Part shown: positions 1,784 through 45,570 of the stretch, piece after piece
How positions within the stretch are numbered: position 1 is the first letter of the stretch
How the letters are laid out: every line of letters starts with the position of its first letter
NCBI RefSeq assembly: GCF_058153355.1
Contig: NZ_CM177019.1
Reading direction: 5' to 3' (one strand)
DNA length: 64,000 nucleotides
Notes under the pieces: generated by a model
Databases searched by the model: none
Told to the model about the DNA's origin: nothing
The model's input: the letters and a program-made list of their open reading frames with translations, nothing else
Translations under genes and position numbers: made by a program

Positions 1784-2509
1784 TTATTCCGTGATTAAAG
1801 TCCCTTCTTTTTCACCCATTACCACACGGCGCAGCGCACCCGGTTTGTTCATGTTGAAAACACGAATCGGTAATTTATGGTCACGAGCCAGCGTGAAGGC
1901 CGCCAGGTCCATGACTTTCAGCTCTTTTTCCAGCACTTCGCTGTAAGTCAGTTGCTCGTACATCGTTGCGGTTGGATCTTTCGCCGGATCAGCAGTAAAC
2001 ACGCCGTCAACTTTGGTTGCTTTCAGCACCACATCGGCTTCAATTTCGATACCACGCAGGCAAGCTGCAGAGTCGGTGGTAAAGAACGGGTTACCTGTAC
2101 CGGCGGAGAGGATCACCACACGATTGTTGCGCAACAGGCTAATCGCTTCTGCCCAGCTGTAGCTGTCGCACACGCCATTCAATGGAATAGCGGACATCAG
2201 ACGAGCGTTCACATAGGCGCGGTGCAGTGCATCACGCATTGCCAGGCCGTTCATTACGGTCGCCAGCATCCCCATGTGGTCGCCCACAACGCGGTTCATA
2301 CCCGCTTTCGCCAGACCAGCGCCACGGAACAGGTTACCCCCACCAATCACCACACCAACCTGAATACCCAGTTCAACCAGTTCTTTGATTTCCTGAGCCA
2401 TGCGATCCAGTATGCTTGCATCAATACCGAAGCCTTCCGTGCCCTGCAGAGCTTCGCCACTCAACTTAAGCAGAATGCGTTTATAGACGGGTTTTGCATT
2501 GGTAGCCAT
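1784..2509 (-). CDS. pyrH: UMP kinase
   Basis: 241-aa [24 protein letters not shown]..., amino-acid kinase family; synteny frr-pyrH-tsf. Confidence 0.97.
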
Positions 2510-2617
2510 GTTTCTTTCCTGAGACTGTCAACGATTGAAATGAATTAATACCGGCGACATTGTACGTCGCTTTTCAGCGCAGCCCCATAAGGGTTAGCTG
2601 AATTTACAAGATGGGCG

Positions 2618-2645
2618 CAAAAAGAAGCCGCCCTCAGGCGGCTCC
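2618..2645 (-). terminator. intrinsic terminator downstream of tsf
   Basis: On minus strand GC hairpin (agccgcc/ggcggct arms) followed by U-rich run, immediately after the tsf stop. Confidence 0.6.
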
Positions 2646-2655
2646 TTTTCGATAA

Positions 2656-3507
2656 TTAAGACTGCTTGGACATCGCAGCAACTTCTGCTGCAAAGTCAGT
2701 CTCAACTTTCTCGATGCCTTCACCTACTTCGAAGCGGATGAAGCCAGTCACTTCAGCGTTATGCTCTTTCAGCAGCTGACCAACAGTTTTGCTTGGTTCC
2801 ATAACGAACGGCTGACCGGTCAGAGAAACTTCGCCGGTGAATTTCTTCATGCGGCCTTCAACCATTTTCTCTGCGATTTCTTTCGGCTTACCAGACTGCA
2901 TCGCGATATCCAGCTGAACCTGGTATTCTTTCTCTACCACTTCAGCGGAAACGTCTTCCGGTTTGATGAATTCTGGTTTGCTTGCAGCAACGTGCATAGC
3001 GATGTGTTTAACCAGCTCTTCGTCAGCGCCTTTAGCAGCAACCAGAACGCCGATACGCGCACCGTGCTGATAAGAACCCAGAACGTCGCCTTCCAGCGCA
3101 GCAACGCGGCGAATGTTGATGTTTTCACCGATTTTCGCTACCAGCGCAACACGTTCTTCTTCGAACTGTGCTTTCAGAACTTCAACGTCAGTGATTTTGC
3201 CAGCAACAGCTGCGTCCAGAACTTTGTCTGCGAACGCCTGGAAACCAGCGTCTTTTGCAACGAAGTCAGTCTGGCAGTTAACTTCCAGAATGATGCCGTA
3301 GTTGCCGTCGATTTTGGTTTTGATCACGCCGTCAGCAGCAACGTTGCCTGCTTTTTTCGCTGCTTTGATAGCACCGGACTTACGCATGTTTTCGATTGCC
3401 AGCTCGATGTCGCCGTTAGCTTCAGTCAGTGCTTTTTTGCAATCCATCATGCCTGCGCCAGTACGCTCACGCAGCTCTTTTACCAGGGATGCGGTAATTT
3501 CAGCCAT
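2656..3507 (-). CDS. tsf: elongation factor Ts
   Basis: 283-aa [30 protein letters not shown]..., EF-Ts; synteny with rpsB. Confidence 0.97.
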
Positions 3508-3561
3508 TCTAAAATCCTCGGAGATGTGATCTGCCCGGCGTTAAACCGCACAGATATAAAA

Positions 3562-3590
3562 GTGAAAAAGGGGGCCATATGCAGGCCCCC
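3562..3590 (-). terminator. rpsB-tsf intercistronic attenuator/terminator hairpin
   Basis: Inverted repeat gggggcc-atatgca-ggccccc followed on the minus strand by a T-run; positioned between rpsB stop and tsf start. Confidence 0.55.
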
Positions 3591-3639
3591 TAACCAAACG
3601 TGTACTACCTGGTCTATAAGGGCTCTCCCCCTTCATATT

Positions 3640-3745
3640 TCGCGCCGCAGATGCGTTGTCTTCGCTCGCTCATCCCGGTCACTTACTGATGTAAGCTCCC
3701 GGGAATTCTCGAGCTTGCCGCCTTTCTGCAACTCGAACTAATTTG
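3640..3745 (-). repeat. degenerate ERIC-like intergenic repeat in rpsB-tsf spacer
   Basis: About 85 percent identity over ~70 nt to the reverse complement of the ERIC copy at 45371-45440 (core cacttactgatgtaagctcc vs cacttacttatgtaagctcc). Confidence 0.55.
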
Positions 3746-9241: not shown

Positions 9242-9553
9242 AAGTATGCACACGGGCAGCACGACGCTGCCCGATTGCTTTCTGGTTCAGAATAATTCGT
9301 CCTACTCATTCTTCTTCCCCTTTTTTAAATACTTTTTCATCTTGTTTCGGACTGTCATGTAATTCGCAAAACAAAGATAAATGTGCTAATCCATCCCATG
9401 GAATATCGCCACAATAAAGCAGGTAATTTTTTGATTTTTACGCCATGATAGAAGTCTGGAAGAAAAAGGCTTTCTGCGATCACAGTCGAGCCGGGCGGGC
9501 CAGGCCAAATGCTAAAATAAGCACAATTTACTGACTCATTTTGAGGTAACGCT

Positions 9554-18766: not shown

Positions 18767-20047
18767 ATGAGTAAGTCTGAAAATCTATACAGCGCAGCGC
18801 GCGAGCTGATCCCTGGCGGTGTGAACTCCCCTGTTCGCGCCTTTACTGGCGTGGGCGGCACTCCACTGTTTATCGAAAAAGCGGACGGTGCTTATCTGTA
18901 CGATGTTGATGGCAAAGCCTATATCGATTATGTCGGTTCCTGGGGGCCGATGGTGCTGGGCCATAACCATCCGGCGATCCGCAATGCCGTGATTGAAGCC
19001 GCCGAGCGTGGTTTAAGCTTTGGGGCACCGACCGAAATGGAAGTGAAAATGGCGCAACTGGTGACCGAACTGGTCCCGACCATGGATATGGTGCGCATGG
19101 TGAACTCCGGCACTGAAGCGACAATGAGTGCCATCCGCCTGGCCCGCGGTTTTACCGGTCGCGACAAAATCATTAAATTTGAAGGTTGTTACCACGGTCA
19201 CGCTGACTGCCTGCTGGTAAAAGCCGGTTCTGGCGCACTCACGTTAGGCCAGCCAAACTCGCCGGGCGTTCCGGCAGATTTTGCCAAACATACCTTAACC
19301 TGTACTTATAACGATCTGGCTTCTGTACGCGCCGCGTTTGAGCAATACCCGCAAGAGATTGCCTGTATTATCGTCGAGCCGGTGGCAGGCAATATGAACT
19401 GTGTTCCGCCGCTGCCAGAGTTCCTGCCGGGTCTGCGTGCGCTGTGTGACGAATTTGGCGCGTTGCTGATCATCGATGAAGTGATGACCGGTTTCCGCGT
19501 GGCGCTGGCTGGCGCGCAGGATTATTACGACGTGGTGCCAGACCTCACCTGCCTGGGCAAAATCATCGGCGGTGGAATGCCGGTAGGCGCATTCGGTGGT
19601 CGTCGTGATGTGATGGATGCGCTGGCCCCAACCGGTCCGGTCTACCAGGCGGGTACGCTTTCCGGTAACCCGATTGCGATGGCAGCCGGTTTCGCCTGTC
19701 TGAATGAAGTCGCGCAGCCGGGCGTTCACGAGACGCTGGATGAGCTGACAACACGTCTGGCAGAAGGTCTGCTGGAAGCGGCAGAAGAAGCGGGAATTCC
19801 ATTGGTCGTTAACCACGTTGGCGGCATGTTCGGTATTTTCTTTACCGACGCCGAGTCCGTGACGTGCTATCAGGATGTGATGGCCTGCGACGTCGAGCGC
19901 TTTAAGCGTTTCTTCCATATGATGCTGGACGAAGGTGTTTACCTGGCACCGTCAGCGTTTGAAGCGGGCTTTATGTCTGTGGCGCACAGCATGGAAGATA
20001 TCAATAACACCATCGATGCTGCACGTCGGGTGTTTGCGAAGTTGTAA
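18767..20047 (+). CDS. hemL: glutamate-1-semialdehyde 2,1-aminomutase
   Basis: 426-aa [52 protein letters not shown]..., class III aminotransferase. Confidence 0.97.
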
Positions 20048-20054
20048 TGATTTT

Positions 20055-20081
20055 GCCTCGCCCACCGGGCGAGGCATTTTA
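20055..20081. terminator. hairpin terminator between convergent hemL and fhuB
   Basis: gcctcgccc-accg-ggcgaggc followed by ATTTTATT; fills almost the whole 34-bp spacer. Confidence 0.6.
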
Positions 20082-22064
20082 TTAACGGCTCTGCTTTCTC
20101 AACAAATAGATAAAATACGGCGCGCCGATAAAGGTCGACAGCAGCCCCGCTGGGATCTGGAATGGAAACAGCACCATCCGCCCACACCAGTCAGCGAACA
20201 CCAGCAACAATCCCCCCACCAGCGCCGAAATCACAATATGCGGCATCGTCCGTCGAAAGCCCATCATCCGCGCAATATGCGGTGCCATTAAACCAACAAA
20301 ACTCAACGGTCCAATGGTCATTGTCGCGGTCGCCGTCAGGCAAGCCGCTAACAGCAGCAGCGCAATTCGCGTCGGCGTCAGCGCCATTCCCACGGCTCGT
20401 GCGGTATCACCTCCCAGCGGTAAAATGGTCAGCCAGCGGCGGCACAGCGGGGTAATCGCCAGCAAAATCACCATCACAATTCCGGTGCGCCAGACCTGCG
20501 CATCGGTCGCGTTGTAGGTCGAACCGGAAATCCAGGTCAGAACTTGCGCCATTCGCGGGTCACCACTTGCCTGCAACATCATCAAAAGCATGGTGAACGC
20601 GGTACTTAAGGCCATCCCCGCCAGTAACATGCGGTGTGGGGAAAATCCACCGCGTCCGGCAGCGATCATAATGATCAACAGCGTCACCGCCGCGCCGAAA
20701 CTGCCCGCGGGTAACAGCCAGCCAAAGGCATTACCCGGCACCAAAAACAGCATCAACACCACACCAAACGCCGCGCCGGAACTAATCCCCAGCACTTCCG
20801 GGCTTGCCATCGGGTTGCCGGTCAGCCGCTGAATAATACAGCCCGCCACCGCCAGCATGACGCCCGCAAACAGCGCCGCCATAATTCGCGGCCAGCGCCA
20901 AGGCATCAAATCCTCGAGCAACGCCCCGCTCGCCCACGTCCAGCCGTGCGCATCACGACCAAACGACAGCGCCACCACCACAGCCATCAACAGCAGCACG
21001 CCGCCCGCGAGGGCAAACGCCAGCACATGTTGGCGTTCAGCAGCGACACGATCGTTCACCTTCATATCCGGCGCGCTAATGCAGCGTAAACGCGGCAGCA
21101 GCCACAGCAGCAGCGGCGCACCGATGAGCGCAGTGACCGAACCGGTAGAAACTTCCATCCACACGCGAGTCAGCCAGAGGATGATTTGATCGGAAAGCCA
21201 GAGGATCAGCGCACCAATCAGTGACGCCAGCAGCAGTCTTGGCAGCAGACGCCGCGCCCCCAGCATTTTTGCCAGCAGCGGCGCGAACAACCCGATAAAG
21301 CCGATAATCCCCACCGCGTTCACCAGCAGCGCACTGATGACTATCGCCAGCGACAGCGCCGCCAGACGCGCGAGCGACAAGGCCAGCCCGAGATTGCGCG
21401 CCACGCCATCATCAAGCCCCATCAGGGTTAACGGACGAAGTAGCAGTAACGTCAGCATCACGCCGCCCAGCAACTGCGGCCATAAACGCTCAACGCCACC
21501 CCAGTCGGTTTGCGTCAGCGTTCCGGTGCTCCACAGGAACATGCTTTGTAGCTGGTCGTGATGGAAGATAACCAGTAACTGATTGATTGCCCCGCAATAA
21601 AGGCTCACCACAAGCCCCGCGAGGATCAGCGTTACCGGAGAAAGCCGTTTCCCCCACGCGACGCCAAAGACAATTAAGCCAACCACACAAGCCCCTGCCA
21701 ATGCAGCAAACTGGCTCGCCATCGCACCAGGGATCGCCCAGAGTGTAGTGACAGTAATTCCCAGTTGCGCACCAGTTGCGACGCCCAACGTGGTCGGCTC
21801 CGCCAGCGGGTTACGCAGCACTTGCTGAAATAGCACGCCCACCAGCCCCAGACCCGCGCCCACCAGCAGCGAAATCGCCAGACGCGGCAGCAAGCTGTAG
21901 TGAAAAATCATCTGCTCGATGACGTCAATATCCGGCGACCAGGCAGCCTGCGCCCACTGGCTACGCGGCAGCGCCTGAGAGAAGTTCATCCAGGTGAGCA
22001 CCGCTGCGGCAACCACCAACAGCGCCAGCAATAATGCCGGGAAAAGCGCAATACGTTTACTCAC
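20082..22064 (-). CDS. fhuB: ferric hydroxamate ABC transporter permease
   Basis: 660-aa duplicated permease ORF MSKRIALFPALLLALLVVAAAVLTWMNF...; 4-nt overlap with fhuD. Confidence 0.96.
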   Translation of the reverse strand: MSKRIALFPALLLALLVVAAAVLTWMNFSQALPRSQWAQAAWSPDIDVIEQMIFHYSLLPRLAISLLVGAGLGLVGVLFQQVLRNPLAEPTTLGVATGAQLGITVTTLWAIPGAMASQFAALAGACVVGLIVFGVAWGKRLSPVTLILAGLVVSLYCGAINQLLVIFHHDQLQSMFLWSTGTLTQTDWGGVERLWPQLLGGVMLTLLLLRPLTLMGLDDGVARNLGLALSLARLAALSLAIVISALLVNAVGIIGFIGLFAPLLAKMLGARRLLPRLLLASLIGALILWLSDQIILWLTRVWMEVSTGSVTALIGAPLLLWLLPRLRCISAPDMKVNDRVAAERQHVLAFALAGGVLLLMAVVVALSFGRDAHGWTWASGALLEDLMPWRWPRIMAALFAGVMLAVAGCIIQRLTGNPMASPEVLGISSGAAFGVVLMLFLVPGNAFGWLLPAGSFGAAVTLLIIMIAAGRGGFSPHRMLLAGMALSTAFTMLLMMLQASGDPRMAQVLTWISGSTYNATDAQVWRTGIVMVILLAITPLCRRWLTILPLGGDTARAVGMALTPTRIALLLLAACLTATATMTIGPLSFVGLMAPHIARMMGFRRTMPHIVISALVGGLLLVFADWCGRMVLFPFQIPAGLLSTFIGAPYFIYLLRKQSR

Positions 22065-28796: not shown

Positions 28797-28889
28797 GCTT
28801 TTTCTCCGCAATATTCAGGCGCAAAAGCCCGATTTTCTGTTCTTCTGTAACAAGACAGAAGAAGATATCTCTCAAATTTACTTTGGTCT

Positions 28890-31184
28890 TCATGAATACT
28901 TTTTCGTCCGTCGCGTCGGTGCGGTATTTGCCGGATCATCCGGCCAGACGTGTTTGGGATAACGCCCTTTCATTTCTTTTTGCACCTCGCGATACGCTCC
29001 TTTCCAGAAGGCACTCAAATCTCGTGTGATTTGCAGCGGCCTTTGGGCAGGAGAAAGCAACTCCAGCACCAGCGGCACACGCCCCTGGGCGATCGTCGGA
29101 TTGGTGGCCTCGCCAAACATCTCCTGCATTCTCACCGCCAGCGCGGGCGGGTTATCTTCATGGTAACGAATGGCGATCCGGCTTCCCGTCGGCACAGTGT
29201 AATGCGCAGGCAATTCACTATCCAGACGTTGCTGCATCCCCCAATCAAGTAATCCGCGTAGCGCCTGATAAATATCGAGTGATTTCAGGCCGCGTAGCGA
29301 ATGTACGCCTGCCATATGCGGCAGTAGCCACGTTTCCAGCGTCGCCAACAAACTTTCATCATCAACCGCTGGCCAGTCATATTCTGGCAACCACCTGGCG
29401 GCGCATAACAAACGCAAGCGTAGCTGTTCCGCTTCCGGCGTCCAGTTAAGCACGCTTAAGCCTTTATCACGAACGCCGTTAAGCATCGCCTGATGCAGCT
29501 CGTCTTCTGAAGGCTTCGCCAGCGGCTGCACTTTTACCGTCAGTTGACCAATTTGCAACCGACGCCAGGCTTTCAGCGTACCTTGCGCATCATCCCACTC
29601 CACGGTGTCCGATTGCTGCACCAGCTGCGGACAGCGTTGCACTAATTCATCGATATCGACCGGTAGCGCCAGTAAAATCCGCGCATCCGGCGAGGCGCTA
29701 CCCTGCAATAATAACGGTGCGATAAGCGAACTGTCTGCCTCACCGCCGCGTACGTTTAAGCGCTTTAACAGTTGCTGGCTACGTTGCTGCCAGGCAGGTT
29801 GATTGCGCGAAAACGCCACGCCCAGATCGATATTGCCCATCCGTGGTGGCTCTTCGAGAATAGCGGCAATTTTTGCAGCGGTAGCAGCTTCGTCGTCGCT
29901 CTTTACGCTCACCAGCATTGCCGCTAAACGCGGATCGTTACCCAGCGTCGCCATTTTCTGCCCTTTCGTGCTTAGCCGTTCACCGTCCATCGCCCCCAGC
30001 ATCCGCAACAGGCGTTTCGCGGCCTGTAAATTCACGGCTGGCGGTTGATCCAGCCAGCTCATCTGCGCCGGATCGCTGCATCCCCATTGCAGTAATTCCA
30101 TCAGCAAACCGGAAAGATCGCTTTGTAAGATCTCCGGTTCACTTTGTGCGGCAGCGCGTTCTGCTTGTTCTTTGGCGATTAAATGCAGGCAGATACCCGG
30201 CTCCAGACGCCCGGCACGCCCGGCACGCTGCGTCATCGACGCCTGACTGATTCGCTGAGTAATCAACCGCGTAAGTCCTGTACGCGGATCAAAACGCGCC
30301 ACCCTTTCCTGGGCGCAATCCACCACCAGACGAATACCTTCGATGGTTAAACTGGTTTCAGCAATATTGGTTGCCAGCACCACTTTGCGCATCCCTTCTG
30401 GTGCCGGAAGGATCGCTTTTCGCTGATCGTTCAGCGACAACGCGCCATACAGCGGGCAGAGCAACACATCACTACCGATGCGCGAAGCCAGTTGTTCCTG
30501 AACGCGCTGAATTTCTCCGACACCAGGTAAAAATAACAGTAATGAGCCGCTTTCCTGATGCAGCAATTCGGCGGTGGCAACCGCCACGGCTTCATCAAAA
30601 CGCTGATGAGCGAGCAGCGGTAAATATCGGCGTTCAACCGGAAATGAGCGCCCTTCTGAGATGACGACGGGCGCTTCTGGCAGCATCTGCTGCAAGCGGT
30701 CATTGTCCAGCGTAGCCGACATAATCAGTAGTTTAAGGTCATCACGCAGACCTTGTTGCACATCGAGTAACAGCGCCAACGCCAGATCCGCCTGCAAGCT
30801 GCGCTCATGAAACTCATCGAGGATCACCAATCCAACGCCGCTCAGTTCAGGGTCACGCTGGATCATGCGCGTCAACACGCCTTCGGTAACTACTTCCAGG
30901 CGAGTATTTGGCCCGACACAGTTTTGCGCGCGCATCCGGTAGCCTACCGTATCACCTGTTTTTTCGTTAAGCAGTTCCGCCAGTCGTTGCGCAACGTTAC
31001 GCGCCGCCAGGCGACGCGGCTCCAGCAGGATAATTTTTCCGTTAATGCCGGGATGCGCCAGCAGTTGCAGCGGCAGCCAGGTTGATTTCCCGGCCCCGGT
31101 CGGCGCACTTAATAACACCTGCGGTGCACCATCGAGGGCAGCAAGTAACTCAGGTAAGACGACGGCAACGGGCAACGACGACAC
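28890..31184 (-). CDS. hrpB: ATP-dependent RNA helicase HrpB (DEAH-box), about 45 codons shorter than my recollection of the K-12 protein
   Basis: ORF track frame 28890..31229; start placed at GTG (complement of 31182-31184) with GGAG 9 nt upstream, giving 764 aa VSSLPVAVVLPELLAALDGAPQVLLSAPTGAGKST...; ends RRTKKYS. Confidence 0.9.
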   Translation of the reverse strand: MSSLPVAVVLPELLAALDGAPQVLLSAPTGAGKSTWLPLQLLAHPGINGKIILLEPRRLAARNVAQRLAELLNEKTGDTVGYRMRAQNCVGPNTRLEVVTEGVLTRMIQRDPELSGVGLVILDEFHERSLQADLALALLLDVQQGLRDDLKLLIMSATLDNDRLQQMLPEAPVVISEGRSFPVERRYLPLLAHQRFDEAVAVATAELLHQESGSLLLFLPGVGEIQRVQEQLASRIGSDVLLCPLYGALSLNDQRKAILPAPEGMRKVVLATNIAETSLTIEGIRLVVDCAQERVARFDPRTGLTRLITQRISQASMTQRAGRAGRLEPGICLHLIAKEQAERAAAQSEPEILQSDLSGLLMELLQWGCSDPAQMSWLDQPPAVNLQAAKRLLRMLGAMDGERLSTKGQKMATLGNDPRLAAMLVSVKSDDEAATAAKIAAILEEPPRMGNIDLGVAFSRNQPAWQQRSQQLLKRLNVRGGEADSSLIAPLLLQGSASPDARILLALPVDIDELVQRCPQLVQQSDTVEWDDAQGTLKAWRRLQIGQLTVKVQPLAKPSEDELHQAMLNGVRDKGLSVLNWTPEAEQLRLRLLCAARWLPEYDWPAVDDESLLATLETWLLPHMAGVHSLRGLKSLDIYQALRGLLDWGMQQRLDSELPAHYTVPTGSRIAIRYHEDNPPALAVRMQEMFGEATNPTIAQGRVPLVLELLSPAQRPLQITRDLSAFWKGAYREVQKEMKGRYPKHVWPDDPANTAPTRRTKKYS

Positions 31185-31257
31185 AAAACGCTCCAGAGGG
31201 TTAACATTCTTCGCGCCACATTGTAGCATCGCGGTAATGCATAACCGAGTACCTCAC

Positions 31258-35560: not shown

Positions 35561-36033
35561 CAGTGGCGTATATTGCTATCGGCAGCAATCTGGCCTCTCC
35601 GCTGGAGCAGGTCAATGCTGCCCTGAAGGCAATAGATGACATTCCTGAAAGCCGCATTCTTGCCGTTTCTTCGTTTTACCGCACCCCACCGCTGGGGCCG
35701 CAAGATCAACCCGATTACTTAAACGCAGCCGTGGCGCTGGAAACCTCTCTTACAGCTGAAGAACTCCTCAACCACACACAGCGTATTGAGTTGCAGCAAG
35801 GTCGCGTCCGCAAAGCTGAACGCTGGGGACCGCGCACGCTCGATCTTGATATCATGTTGTTTGGTAATCAGGTCATAAACACTGAGCGCCTGACCGTTCC
35901 GCACTATGATATGAAGAATCGTGGATTTATGTTGTGGCCGCTGTTTGAGATCGCGCCGGAACTGGTGTTTCCTGATGGTGAAACGCTGCAAGCAAGACTC
36001 ACTACTTTCCCTCCCTGCCCACAGCACTGGTAA
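35557..36033 (+). CDS. folK: 2-amino-4-hydroxy-6-hydroxymethyldihydropteridine pyrophosphokinase (HPPK)
   Basis: 158-aa [65 protein letters not shown]...; last ~17 residues ([17 protein letters not shown]) differ from the K-12 tail as I recall it. Confidence 0.93.
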
Positions 36034-36538
36034 ACCACATTTCTGGAAAAGCGTATTGGGTAATGCAATGTTGTATAATATTATTTTATAGTTTCAATGA
36101 ATTAATTCTCTCTCCCCCATCATAAAAATCACAAAAAAACAGCATTAAACATATAATTACGGCAAATATATTTTCATTACCTATATTATCTTTTCTCTTT
36201 ATAAGAGGTTTTTAATGATAATGAACCAATTTATTCTGGGTACTATGCCTCACTCCCGGTATTAGCACTGGATAGCGCTTAACTGGATTCTGTCAGGCTG
36301 GGACGGGGGCAACAAGTGCATACAACGACCAGTCCTTAACGCGTAATTATTAATTTCTACAGCGTATTATCATATTATTTAAACCTGCCCAACCTCACCA
36401 AATACATTCATAAAATGCATAATTATAATAAATCATAAAAATCCATTCACCGAAGATATTTTTCTTTAAAGAGCGTGGCATTTATAATAAGTATTGGTGA
36501 GAAAATTCACCCCCATTAATTTTTATAAGGATATTCCC
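36034..36538 (+). promoter_or_regulatory. AT-rich regulatory region upstream of the yad fimbrial operon (probable H-NS-silenced promoter)
   Basis: 505-bp non-coding stretch with very high AT content and no ORFs, directly upstream of the major fimbrial subunit gene; RBS aagga 8 nt before yadN ATG. Confidence 0.5.
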
Positions 36539-37108
36539 ATGTTAAAAAAAAGTGCTATTGCTACGGCATTAGTGATGTTCACCACTTCTGCCTTCGCGCT
36601 GGATGGCGGTCAATTAGATTTCGCGGGTTTGGTGAGTGACAACACTTGCGTCTTGCACGTCAACGGTGGCGCCCAGGACGGTCAGATTACCCTGCAAACC
36701 GCCACAACCACTGAAGTTAATCAGGCCGGTGTTGTCCAACTTGCCAGCCCTGGCGCAAAACCGGAAGCCTTCTCTATTACGATCGATTGCTCGGACGATC
36801 CACAGGGCGCCTCTGCCAATCTGAGCATGGGTTCCGTGTTCTTCAGCAACAGTCAGGGCACTCTGAACAACGATCTCTCCATTAGCCAGGCGGCTACCGG
36901 GGTCGCGATTGCCATTCACTACCTTACCGATGCCACTACCTACGAACAGATGAGAGTTAACGACAGCACTGATGTTAAAAACCTGCTGTTTACCAACGGC
37001 AAAGCGGTTTACAACTTTAAAGCGTCATATGTAAAACAGGCAGCAACAGTTAACGCAACGGCAGGTTATGTCAAAACCAACGCCGCTTATACAGTGACTT
37101 ACCAGTAA
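36539..37108 (+). CDS. yadN: fimbrial major subunit (Yad fimbriae)
   Basis: ORF track frame 36494..37108 trimmed to ATG 36539, 189 aa MLKKSAIATALVMFTTSAFALDGGQLDFAGLV... with signal peptide and C-terminal YTVTYQ donor strand; allele divergent from K-12. Confidence 0.8.
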   Translation: MLKKSAIATALVMFTTSAFALDGGQLDFAGLVSDNTCVLHVNGGAQDGQITLQTATTTEVNQAGVVQLASPGAKPEAFSITIDCSDDPQGASANLSMGSVFFSNSQGTLNNDLSISQAATGVAIAIHYLTDATTYEQMRVNDSTDVKNLLFTNGKAVYNFKASYVKQAATVNATAGYVKTNAAYTVTYQ

Positions 37109-37165
37109 ATATCTGCGTCACCCAACAGCCCAAGGGCTGTTGGGTCACTCAATAAGGATAGTGTT

Positions 37166-37909
37166 ATGACCAGGATGTGTCAGTTTATTGTTTCCACTGC
37201 TTTCGTCGCATCGACAGCCGTTTTCAGCCTCACCGCGCAAGCAGATATTGTGCTTTCCGGTACGCGCATTATTTATAATGCCGACCAGAAAGACGTCACA
37301 TTGCGCATGGAAAACAAAGGTGCCCGCCCATTATTAGTTCAGACCTGGATTGATACCGGCAGCGAGAATGCCGACCCCAGCACATTGAAAGTGCCTTTTA
37401 CCGTGACGCCGCCGGTTTCCCGCGTTGATGGTAAAAAAGGCCAAACGGTTAAAATTGCCTGGAACGCCAGCCAGACCCTTCCAGCCGATCGCGAAAGCGT
37501 TTATTGGTTCAATGCGCTGGAAGTTCCCCCCAAGATGAACGATGCCGATGCCAAGGGAAAAAACATTCTGCAATTGGCTTTCCGTACCCGTATCAAGCTG
37601 TTCTATCGCCCAACCGGCCTGGCGGGTAACCCGGCTGATGCACCAAAACAGTTAACCTGGCGTCTCCAGTCTTCAGCCGGAAAAGTGGTGCTGCAGGCAA
37701 CAAACCCAACGCCTTATCACGTCTCATTCAGCAGTATTACCCTTGCCTCAGGCGGTAATAAATATACCGTGGAAAGCAGTATGGTCGAGCCCAAAAGCAG
37801 TGCGGAAATGGTGGTAAAAGGCGCTCCCCGTTCTGTGTCTGGCGCAACAGTTGAGTACTCAGCCATTAATGATTTTGGCGGTGGCATTGACGGCAAAGTC
37901 AAACTTTGA
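37166..37909 (+). CDS. yadV: periplasmic fimbrial chaperone (PapD-like)
   Basis: 247-aa ORF with signal peptide and chaperone motifs (IVLSGTRIIYNADQKDVTLRMENKGARPLLVQTW, LAFRTRIKLFYRP). Confidence 0.85.
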   Translation: MTRMCQFIVSTAFVASTAVFSLTAQADIVLSGTRIIYNADQKDVTLRMENKGARPLLVQTWIDTGSENADPSTLKVPFTVTPPVSRVDGKKGQTVKIAWNASQTLPADRESVYWFNALEVPPKMNDADAKGKNILQLAFRTRIKLFYRPTGLAGNPADAPKQLTWRLQSSAGKVVLQATNPTPYHVSFSSITLASGGNKYTVESSMVEPKSSAEMVVKGAPRSVSGATVEYSAINDFGGGIDGKVKL

Positions 37910-37941
37910 TGCCCACAGACGAGATCGGCTGAGATCGTACA

Positions 37942-40548
37942 ATGAAGATCCCCCACGATGGCAAAAGAATTCAACGATCGCCGCTCGCTTGCCTGATTGC
38001 GTGTAGCCTGCTGCCCTGCACACAAAATGTGTGGGGGGCAAACGAGACCGTTGAGTTTGATAACACGTTCCTGATGGGCGCAGGCGCCAGGGATATTGAT
38101 GTCAATCGTTATAGCAAAGGTAACGCAACATTACCGGGGCGCTATGACGTTAGCGTGTTTATTAATAACCAGGCCAGCGCCAATCTGAAAATCGAGTTTA
38201 TTGAATTAGACCCTGAACACGCTGCTCAGCCCTGTATCTCCACCAACACATTATTACAACTGCATATTCGCCAGCCAGAAAAGTTAGCGGATAACGCAAT
38301 TTTGCAAAAACGCGAAAACGCTGTGCAGGATTGCCTGAACGTAGAGGTTGCTATTCCGCAATCGAGCGTCGCTTACAATAGCAACGATCAGCGGCTTGAT
38401 ATCAGCATGCCGCAAATCTGGCTGCAGAGAACCTATGCCAACTATGTCGATCCGTCGCTGTGGGATGAAGGCATCAATGCCGCAATGCTCTCTTACACCC
38501 TTAACGGCTGGCGCAGTGAATCCCCCAATCAAACCACAGAAACCAGCTACGCCGGACTGATGGGCGGTATCAATTTATGGGGATGGCATTTTCGCTCACA
38601 TGGTAACTATTCGTGGGACAAAGAAGACGGCGGCAGTTTTGAATTTCAGGATAAATATCTGCAACGCGATATCGCCGCGCTCCGCTCTCAGCTGGTAATG
38701 GGTGAAACCAATACCACAGGAGAAACCTTCGACTCGGTGCCTATTCGCGGGCTGCGACTCTATAGCGAAAGCCGCATGTTGCCCCCTACGCTGGCGTCGT
38801 ATGCGCCCGTTATCCGTGGCGTGGCAAACTCTAACGCGAAAGTCACGATCACCCAAAACGGTTATAAAATTTATGAAACGACCGTGCCGCCAGGGCCATT
38901 CGCGATTGACGATCTCACCCCGGCAGGGTTCGGCGCCGATCTCGAGGTGACCATCACCGAATCGGACGGTTCAAAGCGTACGTTTAGTCAGGCTTATTCA
39001 TCGGTGATCCAGATGATGCGTCCCGGCGTGGGCAAATGGGATATCAGCGCCGGTGAGGTCAATAAAGAGGAACTCCAGGATAAACCGAACCTGCTGCAAG
39101 GAACCTACTATTACGGGTTGAGCAACACCTTCACCGGCTACACCGGCCTGCAAATGACCGATAACGGCTACTGGGCCGGTTTATTAGGGTTGGGGGTGAA
39201 TACATCGCTGGGCGCTTTCTCCTTCGATGTTACTCAGTCTCATGCCGAAATTCCTGACGATAAAACCTATAGTGGACAGAGTTACCGTGTTTCATGGAAC
39301 AAATATTTCGCGCCTACCGAAACCTCACTCAACATTGCCGCCTATCGCTACTCCACTGAAAACTATCTGGGGCTGAACGACGCGTTGACGCTGATTAATT
39401 CTGCCAACCATCCTGATGAAGAGGGCTATTCGGGGATTGTCAGTTATGCACGCATGAAAAATCAGTTCAGCGTTAGCATTAATCAAACGTTAAAAAGTGA
39501 TGAACGTGACTATGGCTCTTTCTATGTGAATGGCACATGGACAGATTACTGGGTAACCAACTCATCACAGAGCAGTTTTGCCTTTGGCTACAGCAATGCC
39601 TTTAACTGGGCGAGCTACAGCGTCAGCCTGCAACGGACATACGATGAAGACAATAAGAAGGATGACTCGATTTATCTGAGTGTGACCATTCCGCTTGATA
39701 AACTGCTTGGCCGCGATAGCCATCAGGGCGGGTTCAAAACCCTGAATACCAGCGTTAACAGCGATATGAAAGGTAGCTCGCAATATAACACCAATGCCTC
39801 GGGCTACAGCCAGGATAATCGCTGGAGTTACAGCGTGAATACCGCCTATAACGTGCAGAAAAACAGCGACAGCCTGAAAAGTATCAGCGGTTATACCAGC
39901 TATGAGTCGCCGTGGGGAACATTTTCAGGCTCAGCCTCCACCAGCAGCGATCGCTCACGTCAGTATGGGCTCAGCACCGATGGCGGTTTTGTACTCCACC
40001 GCCACGGTCTGACCTTCAGTAACGACAGTTTTACCGACTCTGACACGTTGGCGCTGATCAACGCCCCGGGTGCAAAAGGCGCGCGCATTAACTTTGGTAA
40101 CAGCACCATCGACCGTTTTGGCTACGGCGTGACCAGTTCACTGTCACCGTACCGGGAAAATACCGTCGCGCTCGATGTTAACGATCTGGATAACGACGTG
40201 GAGCTCAAAAACACCAGTAGCGTCGCCATTCCGCGCCAGGGTTCCGTCATTTTCAGCCACTTTGACACCGATACCGGGCGCTCCGCCATTCTCAATTTAC
40301 TGCGTAGCAACAATCAGCCCGTGCCGTTTGCTTCCGATATTACCGACGAAAAAGGGACCTCTATCGGGACCGTTGGCCAGGGCAGTCAGGCATTTGTACG
40401 CGGCATTGCCGACAGCGGTGAACTGACGGTCACCTGGTATGAGAAAAATAGTCGCCAGCAGTGCCGTATTCATTATCAGATACCGTCATCACCCACCATG
40501 ACCGGTAAAACTATCGTACTCAACGCCGTGCCATGCACCCAGCAATAA
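37942..40548 (+). CDS. htrE: fimbrial outer membrane usher protein
   Basis: 868-aa ORF; usher hallmarks (FDNTFLMGAGARDIDVNRYSKGN, RGLRLYSESRMLPPTLASYAPVIRGVANSNAKVTITQNGYKIYETTVPPGPFAIDDL). Confidence 0.88.
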   Translation: MKIPHDGKRIQRSPLACLIACSLLPCTQNVWGANETVEFDNTFLMGAGARDIDVNRYSKGNATLPGRYDVSVFINNQASANLKIEFIELDPEHAAQPCISTNTLLQLHIRQPEKLADNAILQKRENAVQDCLNVEVAIPQSSVAYNSNDQRLDISMPQIWLQRTYANYVDPSLWDEGINAAMLSYTLNGWRSESPNQTTETSYAGLMGGINLWGWHFRSHGNYSWDKEDGGSFEFQDKYLQRDIAALRSQLVMGETNTTGETFDSVPIRGLRLYSESRMLPPTLASYAPVIRGVANSNAKVTITQNGYKIYETTVPPGPFAIDDLTPAGFGADLEVTITESDGSKRTFSQAYSSVIQMMRPGVGKWDISAGEVNKEELQDKPNLLQGTYYYGLSNTFTGYTGLQMTDNGYWAGLLGLGVNTSLGAFSFDVTQSHAEIPDDKTYSGQSYRVSWNKYFAPTETSLNIAAYRYSTENYLGLNDALTLINSANHPDEEGYSGIVSYARMKNQFSVSINQTLKSDERDYGSFYVNGTWTDYWVTNSSQSSFAFGYSNAFNWASYSVSLQRTYDEDNKKDDSIYLSVTIPLDKLLGRDSHQGGFKTLNTSVNSDMKGSSQYNTNASGYSQDNRWSYSVNTAYNVQKNSDSLKSISGYTSYESPWGTFSGSASTSSDRSRQYGLSTDGGFVLHRHGLTFSNDSFTDSDTLALINAPGAKGARINFGNSTIDRFGYGVTSSLSPYRENTVALDVNDLDNDVELKNTSSVAIPRQGSVIFSHFDTDTGRSAILNLLRSNNQPVPFASDITDEKGTSIGTVGQGSQAFVRGIADSGELTVTWYEKNSRQQCRIHYQIPSSPTMTGKTIVLNAVPCTQQ

Positions 40549-40564
40549 TGTTCCAGGAGAGGAA

Positions 40565-41134
40565 ATGAGAGCTTTTTTACTACCGCCCCTGCTGCTGACG
40601 TCGCTTTGTCTGCGCCCCGCACTGGCAACCGATCTTTCGGTGAACTTTACCGCGACCATCAAAGAGACGACCTGTGCCATGACGCTCAACGCATTGAATG
40701 GGGCCAGTATCAGCGGTGATACCGCAACGAATAGCTATTATCTGGATCTGCCTGATATGGGCGTTTCGGACATTGTGAATAAATCGTCAATGTCAGAGGC
40801 TAATTTTAAAATCCTTCCCAGCAATTGTAATAACTATATTTCCGGCCTGTCGATGACTCTCAATGGCGCAGTCAGCAGCTATACAGATTCGTTAATCGGT
40901 AATGACCAGACCGTTTCCGGACATACCAACTATGTTGGTCTTGGTATTAAACGTATGAACACTGATGAAAACCTCCGCTTTAAACTCAACGGTAGCCAGC
41001 GAATCACCTGGACGAATGATGAAATAAGTAATGGATTAGATCTCACAGCCATGCTTCGTCAGACCACCACCGGGAATACGATCACCACAGGCCAATTCCA
41101 GGCCAAAGTAACTTTCGTCTTTACCTACCAATAG
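40565..41134 (+). CDS. yadM: fimbrial minor subunit
   Basis: 189-aa ORF with signal peptide and C-terminal VTFVFTYQ. Confidence 0.8.
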   Translation: MRAFLLPPLLLTSLCLRPALATDLSVNFTATIKETTCAMTLNALNGASISGDTATNSYYLDLPDMGVSDIVNKSSMSEANFKILPSNCNNYISGLSMTLNGAVSSYTDSLIGNDQTVSGHTNYVGLGIKRMNTDENLRFKLNGSQRITWTNDEISNGLDLTAMLRQTTTGNTITTGQFQAKVTFVFTYQ

Positions 41135-41145
41135 CAGGTTTGTTT

Positions 41146-41742
41146 ATGAATTATCACAATATAACCTTTGTCTTGCTGCTGTGCTTTGGATATATCTCCA
41201 TCGGCCACGCCGCCAGTAGCTCTATGGACGTTACGGTACGCGCTAAGGTTACTGCCAGTACCTGCACGGCGGAATTACGCAATGCGCAGGATCAGCAAGC
41301 CACCACCATCGCTATTGGCGATGTCTATCTCAACGAGCTTTCCGCTAAATCGAAATACCAAAACTTCAGCCTGGTGTTTTCAAACTGCGAAGGGTTAGCA
41401 AAGGATCAGGCAAAAGTTGTGCTTTCTGCACAGACGGGCTGCGATGGTGCTTCCAGTACCGGTGGCGGATACCGTAATGCACTGACGACAGCGGACGATG
41501 ATGCGGCAACCGGTGTTGCAGTTGAAGTGTGGACGACCAACCAGCCAGAAGGTCAGGGCAGCATTCAGCTTAATTGTAAAACCAAACCAACCAGTATTGT
41601 CGATTTAGCCACGGCTACAGGCTCGAATATTGTCCACTGGCCGCTCAGTGCCCGAATTGTTGTCGCATCGGATAATACCATCGCGGATGTCCGTGCAGGT
41701 CAATTCTCCACCAATGCTATCTTTTCTGTAACCTATGAGTAG
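41146..41742 (+). CDS. yadL: fimbrial minor subunit
   Basis: ATG at 41146 (track frame begins at TTG 41140); signal peptide, C-terminal AIFSVTYE. Confidence 0.8.
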   Translation: MNYHNITFVLLLCFGYISIGHAASSSMDVTVRAKVTASTCTAELRNAQDQQATTIAIGDVYLNELSAKSKYQNFSLVFSNCEGLAKDQAKVVLSAQTGCDGASSTGGGYRNALTTADDDAATGVAVEVWTTNQPEGQGSIQLNCKTKPTSIVDLATATGSNIVHWPLSARIVVASDNTIADVRAGQFSTNAIFSVTYE

Positions 41743-42315
41743 ATGATGATGAAAACAGTTATCTACATGATTGCGTTTTGGTTTTCTTACAACGCCATTG
41801 CAGCCAGTACCAATATTAATATGACTGCCAATATCATCAGCACCAGTTGCCGGGTCACGCTCGACAATAATGGAAATATTGATTTAGGCACAGTGGATTA
41901 TAGCTATCTGAATAATAATACCTCTGTCGATCGCGTCTATTCTGGCGGGCACCCCTTTTATATTACCGTCAGCGACTGCGCGCAGGTAGCGGGGAAAAAT
42001 CCGGCCCACCTGACCGTCAGCTTTACGCCTTTGGCAGGCACCCTTGCGCCAACCAACCTCCAGGTATTCGCCAACCAGCAGGTCAACGGTGCAAAAAATG
42101 TCGGCGTGGTTATTTTATCGACCGAGGACGCTCAGCATATTTTCAATGTGCTCGACACGCGTGGTCAACCGCAAAGTATTTACCCCGTGACGCCCGAAAC
42201 GATCGCTAACGCGACATACCACTTTTACGCTCGGATGCAAAAAATTGACCCTACACAAGCGGTAACCAGCGGCGTGGTAAAAGCGAGCGTATTTGTTGGG
42301 GTTTATTATGAATAA
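41743..42315 (+). CDS. yadK: fimbrial minor subunit
   Basis: 190-aa ORF MMMKTVIYMIAFWFSYNAIAA..., C-terminal VFVGVYYE; three consecutive ATG codons make the exact start ambiguous. Confidence 0.8.
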   Translation: MMMKTVIYMIAFWFSYNAIAASTNINMTANIISTSCRVTLDNNGNIDLGTVDYSYLNNNTSVDRVYSGGHPFYITVSDCAQVAGKNPAHLTVSFTPLAGTLAPTNLQVFANQQVNGAKNVGVVILSTEDAQHIFNVLDTRGQPQSIYPVTPETIANATYHFYARMQKIDPTQAVTSGVVKASVFVGVYYE

Positions 42316-42341
42316 TCTATATCACTCTCAAGGATGAAGAG

Positions 42342-43574
42342 ATGAACACGCAATTTTTTTCCCGGTCTAAACGGTGGTGTCGAACACTGCTGGTTCTGTT
42401 GTCCTTCTATTCAGGCTGCCTGCACTCTGCCAACACAATTATCGTCGGCAACAAAACCTATTCAGGCTCGACGGAAAGTAATTCCGGTCCACAGGGGGAT
42501 GGCAGCGCAACGGCAACGTTCAGCACAGGAGCAAACCAGATAGTGATCCCAACCTCCGCGGGGCTACAAAGTAGCAACATCAGGCTCCAGTTGGGCTGGG
42601 TGGATACGGGTTCATTAGGCAATGCCCTGATTTACTGTGGAGCTGGTGGAATGGGAACGCCTTTAACCCTGGAGAGCCATTTCGTTGATGCTCTGGTGAG
42701 TGCAGATGGCCACAAGCTCTTTAAAACCAATGTGCAGGGTCTCTACTTCAGGATGCACATGTACAGTGTAAGCTCATTCAAAACAACATCCAGCAGCGAT
42801 ATCTATATCGGTGACCCCCCCCAACAAACACTGACCTTAACGCCCGAGAATTCCGTATGCGTCGCCGATCTGGGGAAATACACAGCCATAGGCGGTCTGG
42901 TCAGTAAAATTGATATTGAGTTTTATAATGATGGAACCTTCAATCCCAATACGACAGGTAGCATCGCTTTACTGAGCAACAAGGGATATCACTATTCAGT
43001 GACAAATGCAGCGCCTGGTGGTGCATTGACCTCGCACTATATTTATCAGACGTTCAATATGGGTAATGTGACGCTTAGCTCGCCTACCTGTACCTCAGCG
43101 GTCGTTTCGGGGAATACAGTTAAGGGAGATACCGTCAGTCTCGGTGAATATAACCCCAAAGATATCCTTGATGGCGTTGACGGCATCCCTTTTGGTATAG
43201 CACTAAAGAACTGTTACCGGGTCACCAATATCGAGGTCAAAATGACTACCGGCGCCCCTGCAATGTCGGCTGCGTTATTGGGTAATTCGTTAACCGCCGA
43301 GGCCAATGCCGCCAACGGCGTAGGCGTGGAGATAAAAGGAAAATCGAACTCACATTATGCCGAGGTTGTTCTTCACCCTAATGACACCCATTCTGTTTAT
43401 AAAGCCTATGTCGATACAGCTGACACGTCGAATGGCATTATTGGTTCAGGCACATCGGGAACCGCAGCAAATCAAACGCTAAATTTTGTTGCCACCCTCA
43501 AACAAGACAACAATCAACAAATCAGAGGCGGGGATTTCAAAGCGACCGCCGTTTTCTCTATCACCTACCCATGA
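42342..43574 (+). CDS. yadC: fimbrial tip adhesin-like protein
   Basis: 410-aa ORF, signal peptide, two-domain size typical of tip adhesins, C-terminal AVFSITYP pilin fold; last gene of operon. Confidence 0.8.
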   Translation: MNTQFFSRSKRWCRTLLVLLSFYSGCLHSANTIIVGNKTYSGSTESNSGPQGDGSATATFSTGANQIVIPTSAGLQSSNIRLQLGWVDTGSLGNALIYCGAGGMGTPLTLESHFVDALVSADGHKLFKTNVQGLYFRMHMYSVSSFKTTSSSDIYIGDPPQQTLTLTPENSVCVADLGKYTAIGGLVSKIDIEFYNDGTFNPNTTGSIALLSNKGYHYSVTNAAPGGALTSHYIYQTFNMGNVTLSSPTCTSAVVSGNTVKGDTVSLGEYNPKDILDGVDGIPFGIALKNCYRVTNIEVKMTTGAPAMSAALLGNSLTAEANAANGVGVEIKGKSNSHYAEVVLHPNDTHSVYKAYVDTADTSNGIIGSGTSGTAANQTLNFVATLKQDNNQQIRGGDFKATAVFSITYP

Positions 43575-43583
43575 GCCCCGCTA

Positions 43584-43608
43584 CCGGCAGGCCCCCCTGC
43601 CGGTTTTG
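43584..43608 (+). terminator. intrinsic terminator of the yad operon
   Basis: ccggcagg-cccc-cctgccgg hairpin followed by TTTTG, 10 nt after yadC stop. Confidence 0.75.
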
Positions 43609-43692
43609 ACCATAAAGGGCTAACACTCATCACTGACATCCCCTACAATGCGCCAATCCTATAGATAACACTTATGACTAACAGGGGTTATG

Positions 43693-44487
43693 ATGAAACC
43701 GACCACCATCTCCTTGCTGAACAAATACAAACAAGAAAAAAAACGCTTCGCCACTATTACCGCTTACGACTACAGCTTCGCCAAATTGTTTGCTGAAGAA
43801 GGACTTAACGTGATGTTGGTTGGCGATTCGCTGGGCATGACTGTTCAGGGGCACGACTCCACACTCCCGGTAACCGTTCAAGATATCGCCTACCACACTG
43901 CTGCCGTACGTCGTGGCGCACCGAATTGCCTGCTGCTGGCTGACCTGCCGTTTATGGCGTATTCCACCCCGGAACAGGCCTTTGAAAATGCCGCCACAGT
44001 AATGCGTGCCGGAGCCAATATGGTCAAAATTGAAGGCGGCGCATGGTTGGTTGAGACGGTACGAATGCTGACTGAACGTGCAGTTCCGGTGTGTGGTCAT
44101 TTAGGTTTAACCCCACAGTCAGTGAATATTTTTGGCGGCTACAAAGTACAAGGGCGTGGCGATGAAGCGGGCGATCAACTGCTCAGCGATGCGTTAGCCT
44201 TAGAAGCCGCTGGTGCACAGTTGCTGGTGCTGGAATGCGTGCCGGTTGAACTGGCGAAACGCATTACTGAAGCGCTGGCGATTCCGGTAATCGGTATTGG
44301 CGCGGGCAACGTCACCGACGGGCAAATCCTCGTGATGCACGACGCGTTCGGTATTACCGGCGGCCATATCCCTAAATTTGCAAAAAATTTCCTTGCTGAA
44401 ACGGGCGACATCCGCGCAGCAGTGCGTCAGTATATAGCTGAAGTGGAGTCCGGGGTTTATCCGGGCGAAGAACACAGTTTCCATTAA
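43693..44487 (+). CDS. panB: 3-methyl-2-oxobutanoate hydroxymethyltransferase
   Basis: 264 aa [55 protein letters not shown]... (second ATG of track ORF). Confidence 0.96.
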
Positions 44488-45350: not shown

Positions 45351-45355
45351 TACTT

Positions 45356-45482
45356 ATACTCTAAATAATTCAAGTTGCAGGAAGGCGGCAAGCGAGTGAA
45401 TCCCCAGGAGCTTACATAAGTAAGTGACTGGGGTGAGCGAACGCAGACGCAGCACATGCAACTTGAAGTATGACGAGTATAA
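45356..45482 (+). repeat. ERIC (enterobacterial repetitive intergenic consensus) element
   Basis: Contains gtgaatccccaggagcttacataagtaagtgactggggtgagcgaacgcagacgcagcacatgcaacttgaagtatgacgagtata, matching the ERIC core inverted repeat; lies in the panC-rpnC spacer. Confidence 0.8.
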
Positions 45483-45570
45483 CTGGCGCTACGGCTGATG
45501 GCGCCAATTATTAATTTGCCCCACGTCATGACGATGACGTCTGTAAGCGGTTATTCATACCGCAGACAAC

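Follow-up and report, generated by a model that had tools for sequence, protein, structure and literature searches.

The short spacers that separate hemL from fhuB, gcd from cueO and hrpB from mrcB in the analysed stretch of DNA (64,000 nucleotides, referred to as the window) are very probably an instance of the ordinary presence/absence polymorphism of small intergenic repeats in E. coli, a kind of variation that had been described as early as the 1990s. The spacers measure 34 bp (hemL-fhuB, 20048-20081), 46 bp (gcd-cueO, 54649-54694) and 93 bp (hrpB-mrcB, 28797-28889) in the window, against 157 bp (fhuB 173444 / hemL 173602), 201 bp (cueO 138633 / gcd 138835) and 195 bp (hrpB 164534 / mrcB 164730) in E. 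coli K-12 MG1655, and a fourth spacer, panC-rpnC, is the longer one in the window (220 bp, 45351-45570, against 73 bp in K-12). The lengths were taken from the open reading frames of the window and the K-12 MG1655 coordinates, and an independent anchor-based extraction agrees with them; the initial annotation had given the three short lengths exactly, and the K-12 values that it gave (157, about 200 and 195 bp) are correct. It had also attributed the K-12 excess to REP/ERIC-type elements, and small dispersed repeats were indeed found, but none of them is an ERIC: they are two BIMEs and one pair of Box C elements. As was proposed, the loci do differ in their repeat content, with K-12 carrying three elements that the window lacks and the window carrying one ERIC that K-12 lacks.

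The short spacers had been read as a trait of this particular strain, and that reading did not survive the comparison with other genomes, in which all three are common alleles. Counted at a coverage of ≥ 80% in 5426 complete E. coli genomes, with numbers that depend on the design of the queries, the short form of hemL-fhuB was recovered from 3703 genomes (68%) and the K-12 form from 1701 (31%), the 46-bp form of gcd-cueO from 2376 (44%) and the 201-bp form from at least 2742 (51%; the remainder includes a 77-bp form), and the 93-bp form of hrpB-mrcB from 1884 (35%) and the 195-bp form from 3234 (60%). K-12 is the carrier of the minority allele at hemL-fhuB. It is no neutral yardstick for intergenic lengths, and repeats that seem to be missing from a new strain often represent the commoner state.

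The window corresponds, in reverse complement, to K-12 MG1655 at about 129.3-194.4 kb, with the gene order dxr...hemL-fhuBDCA-mrcB-hrpB...panBC-rpnC...gcd-cueO...acnB-yacH. In a gapped alignment against 70 kb of K-12 the identity, gaps excluded, was 94.8-97.8%, and the identity per 4-kb segment (yad operon left out) to the reference strains K-12 (phylogroup A), IAI1 (B1), CFT073 (B2), O157:H7 Sakai (E) and IAI39 (F) was mostly 94-97%, with a range of 90-99%. None of the 5426 complete E. coli genomes was more than 97.6% identical over 24 kb, and the nearest ones, EC42405 and Z0117EC0005, were 95.5-99.5% identical by segment, except for the fhuA segment of Z0117EC0005 (86.6%); because of these values the source is taken to be a divergent lineage of the E. 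coli group, one that may be clade-I-like. Inside the aligned blocks, intergenic indels of ≥ 5 bp with respect to K-12 were found at hemL-fhuB, gcd-cueO, hrpB-mrcB and panC-rpnC only, and the further large differences, a gap at yaeI and a divergent yad operon, lie outside these blocks.

A motif scan recovered no REP and no Box C from the whole 64-kb window, the best REP hits having two mismatches and being located in coding DNA, while the same scan recovered two BIMEs and one Box C pair from the K-12 counterpart. REP units of the Y and Z types with CTTATCnGGCCTAC were confined to K-12 (138.7 kb and 173.5 kb; REP tails, perfect or with one mismatch, at 138714, 138763, 173526 and 173555), and so were the Box C motifs (164.5-164.6 kb). 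The element identities are based on motif scans and copy number; the K-12 record annotates only CDS and ncRNA there. An Rfam scan of the whole window returned no family within the three short spacers. The classical repeat families of E. coli are listed in one source as PU-BIME, ERIC (127 bp) and BoxC (56 bp, 32 copies) (PMC2267715), and BIMEs are described as showing 'exceptional length polymorphism' (Bachellier et al. 1997, Genetics 145:551, as cited in PMC2817692) and as binding IHF, gyrase and Pol I (PMC3184786). According to a preprint (bioRxiv 10.64898/2026.03.23.713779), REP clusters located in 3' UTRs terminate transcription and stabilise the mRNA, are found at ~30% of the convergent gene pairs and differ in their positions from strain to strain.

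The hemL-fhuB spacer

In the window hemL (18767-20047, plus strand), identified as the gene for glutamate-1-semialdehyde aminomutase from its open reading frame and the annotation of matching regions, converges with the open reading frame of fhuB (20082-22064, minus strand), encoding a ferric hydroxamate ABC permease. The 34-bp spacer in between, TGATTTTGCCTCGCCCACCGGGCGAGGCATTTTA, consists for nearly its full length of one stem-loop (20054-20076) that starts 6 nt past the hemL stop codon and has a 10-bp stem with eight G-C pairs and a 3-nt loop (GCCTCGCCC-ACC-GGGCGAGGC). On the plus strand, which is the hemL side, it is followed by the T-rich tail TTTTATTAAC, with the ≥ 5 T in 8 positions asked for by the terminator scan, which accordingly reported an intrinsic-terminator-like hairpin plus tail at 20054-20083 on that strand. 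The surrounding 51 nt (20040-20090) fold on the plus strand into this hairpin plus an outer helix at -26.9 kcal/mol (z = -5.8; none of 200 shuffled sequences folded as well), and on the minus strand into the hairpin alone, at -20.6 kcal/mol. The spacer does not match the REP consensus and its hairpin is unlike a REP, which would read ..GATGCG..CTTATCnGGCCTAC with a GTAG/CTAC-tagged stem.

With its G+C-rich 10-bp stem, 3-nt loop and T-rich tail directly behind the hemL stop codon, the structure resembles the Rho-independent terminators that are found between convergent genes, and most likely the 34-bp spacer serves as a Rho-independent terminator and 3'-end stabiliser of hemL. On the fhuB side the hairpin is followed by AAAAUCA; because there is no U-tract on this strand, and the U-rich criterion of the scan therefore does not hold for fhuB, the hairpin is not a canonical bidirectional terminator, from which it differs by being asymmetric, lacking the A-tract upstream. 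For the convergent fhuB transcript it probably acts as a weaker barrier or as a 3'-end hairpin. The run on the hemL side comprises only four T's, after which an A follows, and many E. coli tails read ATTCAA or ATCCTA, so that the strength of the terminator may be modest and variable.

The stem of the hairpin is invariant among the compared E. coli and the tail varies: the positions past the hairpin (20077-20081 in the window) read ATTTTA in the window and Sakai, ATTCAA in CFT073 and IAI1, and ATCCTA in IAI39. The U-tract therefore differs between strains, and presumably the terminator strength does too. The 34-bp allele as such is shared by CFT073, Sakai, IAI1 and IAI39.

The 157-bp spacer of K-12 is a BIME with three REPs: a unit of the Y type, an inverted unit of the Z2 type and a degenerate third unit. 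Its sequence is found at a median of nine places per genome, making it a multi-copy segment. The initial annotation had described the short spacer as filled by a terminator hairpin, which it is, but of this hairpin the K-12 allele holds no trace: in the alignment the two alleles share no homology between the stop codons, and the hemL stop codon itself differs (TAA versus TGA). Because homology ends at the stop codons, the spacer must be regarded as having been replaced wholesale, and not as having received an insertion next to a shared hairpin. In being a strain-variable REP cluster at a 3' end, a location that is favoured in particular where genes converge, the locus belongs, like gcd-cueO, to the known BIME/REP (PU) length polymorphism of E. 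coli; it differs from that polymorphism in that the REP-free allele is a non-homologous hairpin spacer and no empty site.

Both alleles extend beyond the E. coli reference strains. The BIME allele of K-12 has orthologs in E. albertii (118 bp), E. whittamii (expanded to 440 bp), Escherichia sp. MOD1-EC7003 (157 bp), 'E. coli' SCPM-O-B-8794 (162 bp), EC42405 and Z0117EC0005; the K-12 and EC42405 copies agree in 145 of their 157 positions. Outside the genus there is a counterpart of the hairpin allele: a hairpin with the same stem (GCCTCGCC/GGCGAGGC, 8-9 bp) fills spacers of 35-36 bp in Intestinirhabdus and three species of Citrobacter. Since the BIME occurs in four other Escherichia species and the hairpin in Citrobacter and Intestinirhabdus, neither a simple gain of the BIME by K-12 nor a simple loss of it by the window strain fits, and for this spacer both halves of the earlier wording, 'lost or never present', fall short. 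The two non-homologous alleles look old.

REP clusters in 3' UTRs are involved in termination, protection against exonucleases and the binding of gyrase and IHF. Most likely the two hemL-fhuB alleles do the same job, which would be to end and to protect both convergent transcripts. It is conceivable, although we put this forward tentatively, that the locus represents an ancient dimorphism in which a plain terminator hairpin and a REP cluster of the BIME-2 type fulfil the same role. The pair of alleles would lend itself well to testing, in nature, what REPs do, and if both have outlasted the speciation of Escherichia, or are swapped as very short conversion tracts reaching to the conserved gene termini, they would constitute a natural allele-swap experiment on the role of REPs at 3' ends.

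Across 77 species of Enterobacteriaceae the spacer between fhuB and hemL ranged from 33 to 1840 bp (median 95), and the occupants were REP-like in 36 cases, Box C-like in 29 and neither in 20; the spacer is a recurrent landing pad, or hot spot, for small repeats within the family. The E. whittamii spacer (L005:11985-12424, 440 bp) contains about nine alternating REPs, versus three in K-12. An apparent compensatory change from G:C to T:A in the hairpin was noted by eye only, in an alignment where the hairpins of Enterobacter and Kosakonia are one MAFFT column out of register; these hairpins may be related to Box C and not be orthologous to the hemL hairpin. Box C-like copies were found in both the fhuB-hemL and the hrpB-mrcB spacers of other Enterobacteriaceae.

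The gcd-cueO and hrpB-mrcB spacers

The initial annotation had called all three short spacers convergent, and this applies to hemL-fhuB and to gcd-cueO (gcd ends at 54648 on the plus strand, cueO at 54695 on the minus strand); hrpB and mrcB form a tandem, co-directional pair on the minus strand (hrpB stop at 28890, mrcB ATG at 28796).

At gcd-cueO the K-12 excess amounts to 155 bp, running from the gcd stop codon to a hairpin that is common to all alleles. This hairpin, ATGCCCGGA-GAGA-TCCGGGCAT, was recovered by folding at 54654-54675 of the window and is kept in K-12, CFT073, Sakai, IAI1, EC42405 and IAI39. The K-12 insert contains a Y REP, an IHF-like motif and an inverted REP of the Z1 type, and is highly multi-copy, with matches at 39 or more places per genome; AATCAATGGATTG, located between the REPs, fits the IHF consensus WATCAANNNNTTR by eye and is a candidate site. 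In having two inverted REPs around an IHF-like motif the insert resembles the BIME-1 / RIP / RIB type (Y REP, IHF-binding L motif, Z1 REP), and we class it as BIME-1-like from the published consensus sequences and not from a curated annotation. The window differs from that type in that the element is absent altogether.

The alleles at this locus bear directly on the possibility that the repeats were once present in the window lineage and were later deleted, which would make the short spacers secondary losses. TAATGCCCGG, located at the right junction of the 201-bp form, also occurs in the 46-bp form. The 77-bp form of CFT073 looks like the product of a deletion between ATGCC repeats, since one such repeat lies at its junction and the left flank of the 201-bp form (38 bp) is retained. 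Judged from the sequences of the three E. coli alleles, two distinct deletions that each removed the BIME would be somewhat more parsimonious. EC42405 and Z0117EC0005 moreover have the 201-bp BIME between flanks that are nearly identical to those of the window, and the EC42405 copy visibly differs from the K-12 copy at many positions, as judged by eye, which suggests that it is old there. The 46-bp spacer of the window, however, is identical base for base to that of IAI39, including a CCAT start that is missing from the 201-bp allele, and this fits the transfer of an already existing allele better than a deletion of recent date.

At hrpB-mrcB the K-12 excess consists of 102 bp directly after the hrpB stop codon, in which an inverted pair of Box C elements is located (164547-164631; each unit a CCCTCTCCC..GGGAGAGGG palindrome with a GGGTGAGGG tail). 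Similar copies, one example being near ilvC, were located by megablast in other parts of E. coli genomes, at up to five places per genome. E. whittamii and Escherichia sp. MOD1-EC7003 have the 93-bp form at full length, and a core of about 80 bp is kept in Citrobacter, Lelliottia, Yokenella, Atlantibacter and Trabulsiella; because these outgroups carry the short form or its core, the 93-bp form is ancestral and the Box C pair an insertion. Of the two possibilities that had been left side by side for the short spacers, lost or never present, the second is thus the one that applies here. The K-12 locus, with its two inverted copies, is like the described Box C of E. coli (56 bp, ~32 copies; PMC2267715), and the window differs from it in lacking the element, its spacer being in the ancestral state.

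The hrpB-mrcB spacer also contains a stem-loop, TTCTTCTGTC..GACAGAAGAA (28840-28863, minus strand), whose fold is no better than that of shuffled sequences (z = -0.66). Together with about 80 bp upstream of the mrcB start it is conserved across genera, with apparently compensating changes in the stem (Citrobacter, Trabulsiella and Lelliottia), and it may be a terminator of hrpB or a leader element of mrcB.

Probable reassortment of alleles and alternative explanations

The repeats themselves may have spread by way of the TnpA-REP/RAYT enzyme or by gene conversion in the case of REP/BIME, and an ERIC would have arrived by transposition into a TA site. The alleles are old and very probably have been reassorted among lineages by homologous recombination, so that they do not track the clonal background. 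The combinations of alleles, given in the order hemL-fhuB / hrpB-mrcB / gcd-cueO, are: 34 / 93 / 46 in the window and likewise in IAI39 (phylogroup F), 34 / 93 / 77 in CFT073 (B2), 34 / 195 / 201 in Sakai (E) and IAI1 (B1), 157 / 195 / 201 in K-12 (A) and 157 / 93 / 201 in EC42405 and Z0117EC0005. The gcd-cueO flanks of the window are EC42405-like on both sides, mostly with 0-3 mismatches per 100 bp, and enclose the spacer allele of IAI39. At hemL-fhuB K-12 and IAI1 have different alleles, although their flanks are nearly identical for some hundred bp to either side of the spacer, and for ~1 kb in the direction of fhuB. Because near-identical flanks carry different spacer alleles, the alleles appear to have been reassorted by recombination over short tracts.

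The import of a long foreign tract was considered for each case. As the source of the hemL-fhuB BIME of K-12 it was rejected, K-12 and IAI1 being near-identical right up to the spacer, and as the source of the short gcd-cueO allele of the window it was rejected because of the EC42405-like flanks on both sides. For the hemL-fhuB spacer of the window itself such a tract is possible: the flank on the hemL side is EC42405-like, and the flank on the fhuB side is equally distant from all references and matches none of them well.

Among the alternative explanations, the secondary losses introduced above are a doubtful though possible explanation of the short spacers. To the evidence from gcd-cueO can be added that the hemL-fhuB BIME is present in four other Escherichia species and in the nearest relatives of the window. 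The other two loci do not follow, however: at hrpB-mrcB the short form is the ancestral one (E. whittamii and MOD1-EC7003, with the core in Citrobacter, Lelliottia, Yokenella and Atlantibacter), and the hemL-fhuB alleles have no sequence in common, so that a deletion cannot convert one into the other.

A second alternative, that the lineage of the window is generally poor in REP/BIME, for example for want of an active TnpA-REP/RAYT, and that the absences therefore extend over the whole genome, is improbable. It would agree with the count of zero REPs and zero Box C elements in the 64-kb window versus two BIMEs and a Box C pair in K-12, and with the divergence of the lineage (~94-97% identity of the window to the main phylogroup references). 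A stretch of 64 kb in which the counts differ by just two BIMEs is, however, too small a sample for a claim about a genome, and each of the short alleles is frequent in ordinary E. coli, with all three occurring together in IAI39, a normal member of phylogroup F. In the closest complete genomes (97-99.5% identical), furthermore, two of the three sites are occupied by BIMEs, and since these nearest relatives have them at hemL-fhuB and gcd-cueO, the data point to a shuffling of alleles and not to a lineage-wide lack of repeats. An assembly artefact, in which repeats were collapsed or dropped, is hardly credible: draft genomes can mis-assemble repeats, and nothing more specific speaks for it, but the same junctions recur in complete genomes, in 1884 to 3703 of them depending on the locus and with up to 100% identity across the junction, as well as in curated references.

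The presence or absence of REP, Box C and ERIC elements can alter 3'-UTR termination and mRNA stability, in this case for hemL, fhuB, gcd, cueO and hrpB and in the region upstream of mrcB, and it underlies the differences between strains in REP- and ERIC-PCR typing.

The ERIC of the panC-rpnC spacer and other differences in the window

The spacer between panC and rpnC contains an ERIC element (45357-45481, plus strand; 125 bp that are present in the window and not in K-12), as the initial annotation had stated. TA adjoins the element at either end, and its core (45396-45439) matches at 44 of 44 bases a query that we assembled from what we take to be the two ERIC-PCR primer sites. The empty site is intact in K-12 and IAI1 (TACTTA|ACTGG), and 'gained', the word used initially, is the natural reading. 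The element was found at this site in 427 of the 5426 genomes (8%) and has a median of six places per genome. ERIC, also known as IRU, is reportedly the subject of work by Hulton (1991) and by Wilson & Sharp (2006). With its core, TA flanks, multiple copies and intact empty site the element is like other members of this 127-bp MITE family and shows nothing unusual; ERIC-type elements are described in one source as TA-flanked MITEs (PMC3184786).

The same ERIC insertion is present in the panC-yadD spacer of Sakai (~152238-152535, 298 bp), where it is broken by a further insert of 78 bp, and CFT073 (347 bp) and IAI39 (359 bp) have a transposase-like fragment at the site instead. A second ERIC-like core (3667-3710), common to the window and K-12, lies in the rpsB-tsf spacer (3570-3710) and is overlapped by an Rfam match to the CssrA sRNA (3570-3679, minus strand, 136.6 bits). 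The neighbouring rpnC gene (45571-46515, minus strand) has an extra in-frame segment of 48 bp with respect to K-12 (45721-45768); its length varies from 897 to 945 bp among the reference strains.

Within hrpB (28890-31229, minus strand) 135 bp, or 45 codons, are missing in frame at 29700-29725 (K-12 163571-163705). Every reference strain retains the segment, as do the nearest relatives, E. whittamii, Salmonella arizonae and Intestinirhabdus, and the 12-bp direct repeat (TAACGGTGCGAT) that borders it in the intact alleles points to slippage. The deletion junction was found in none of the 5426 genomes and could be either a private mutation or an error of sequencing or assembly.

The gene yaeI (K-12 b0164, a phosphodiesterase) is absent from the window, ~840 bp of K-12 being replaced by an AT-rich stretch of 127 bp (9277-9403); EC42405 has the same 312 bp in the dapD-yaeH spacer (9242-9553), and Z0117EC0005 retains yaeI. 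The yad chaperone-usher fimbrial operon (~36000-43700) is divergent, with about 65% of it aligning, in patches, to yadN-yadC of K-12, and the part of the window that includes it (20000-44000) is covered for ≥ 80% in only 22 of the 5426 genomes.
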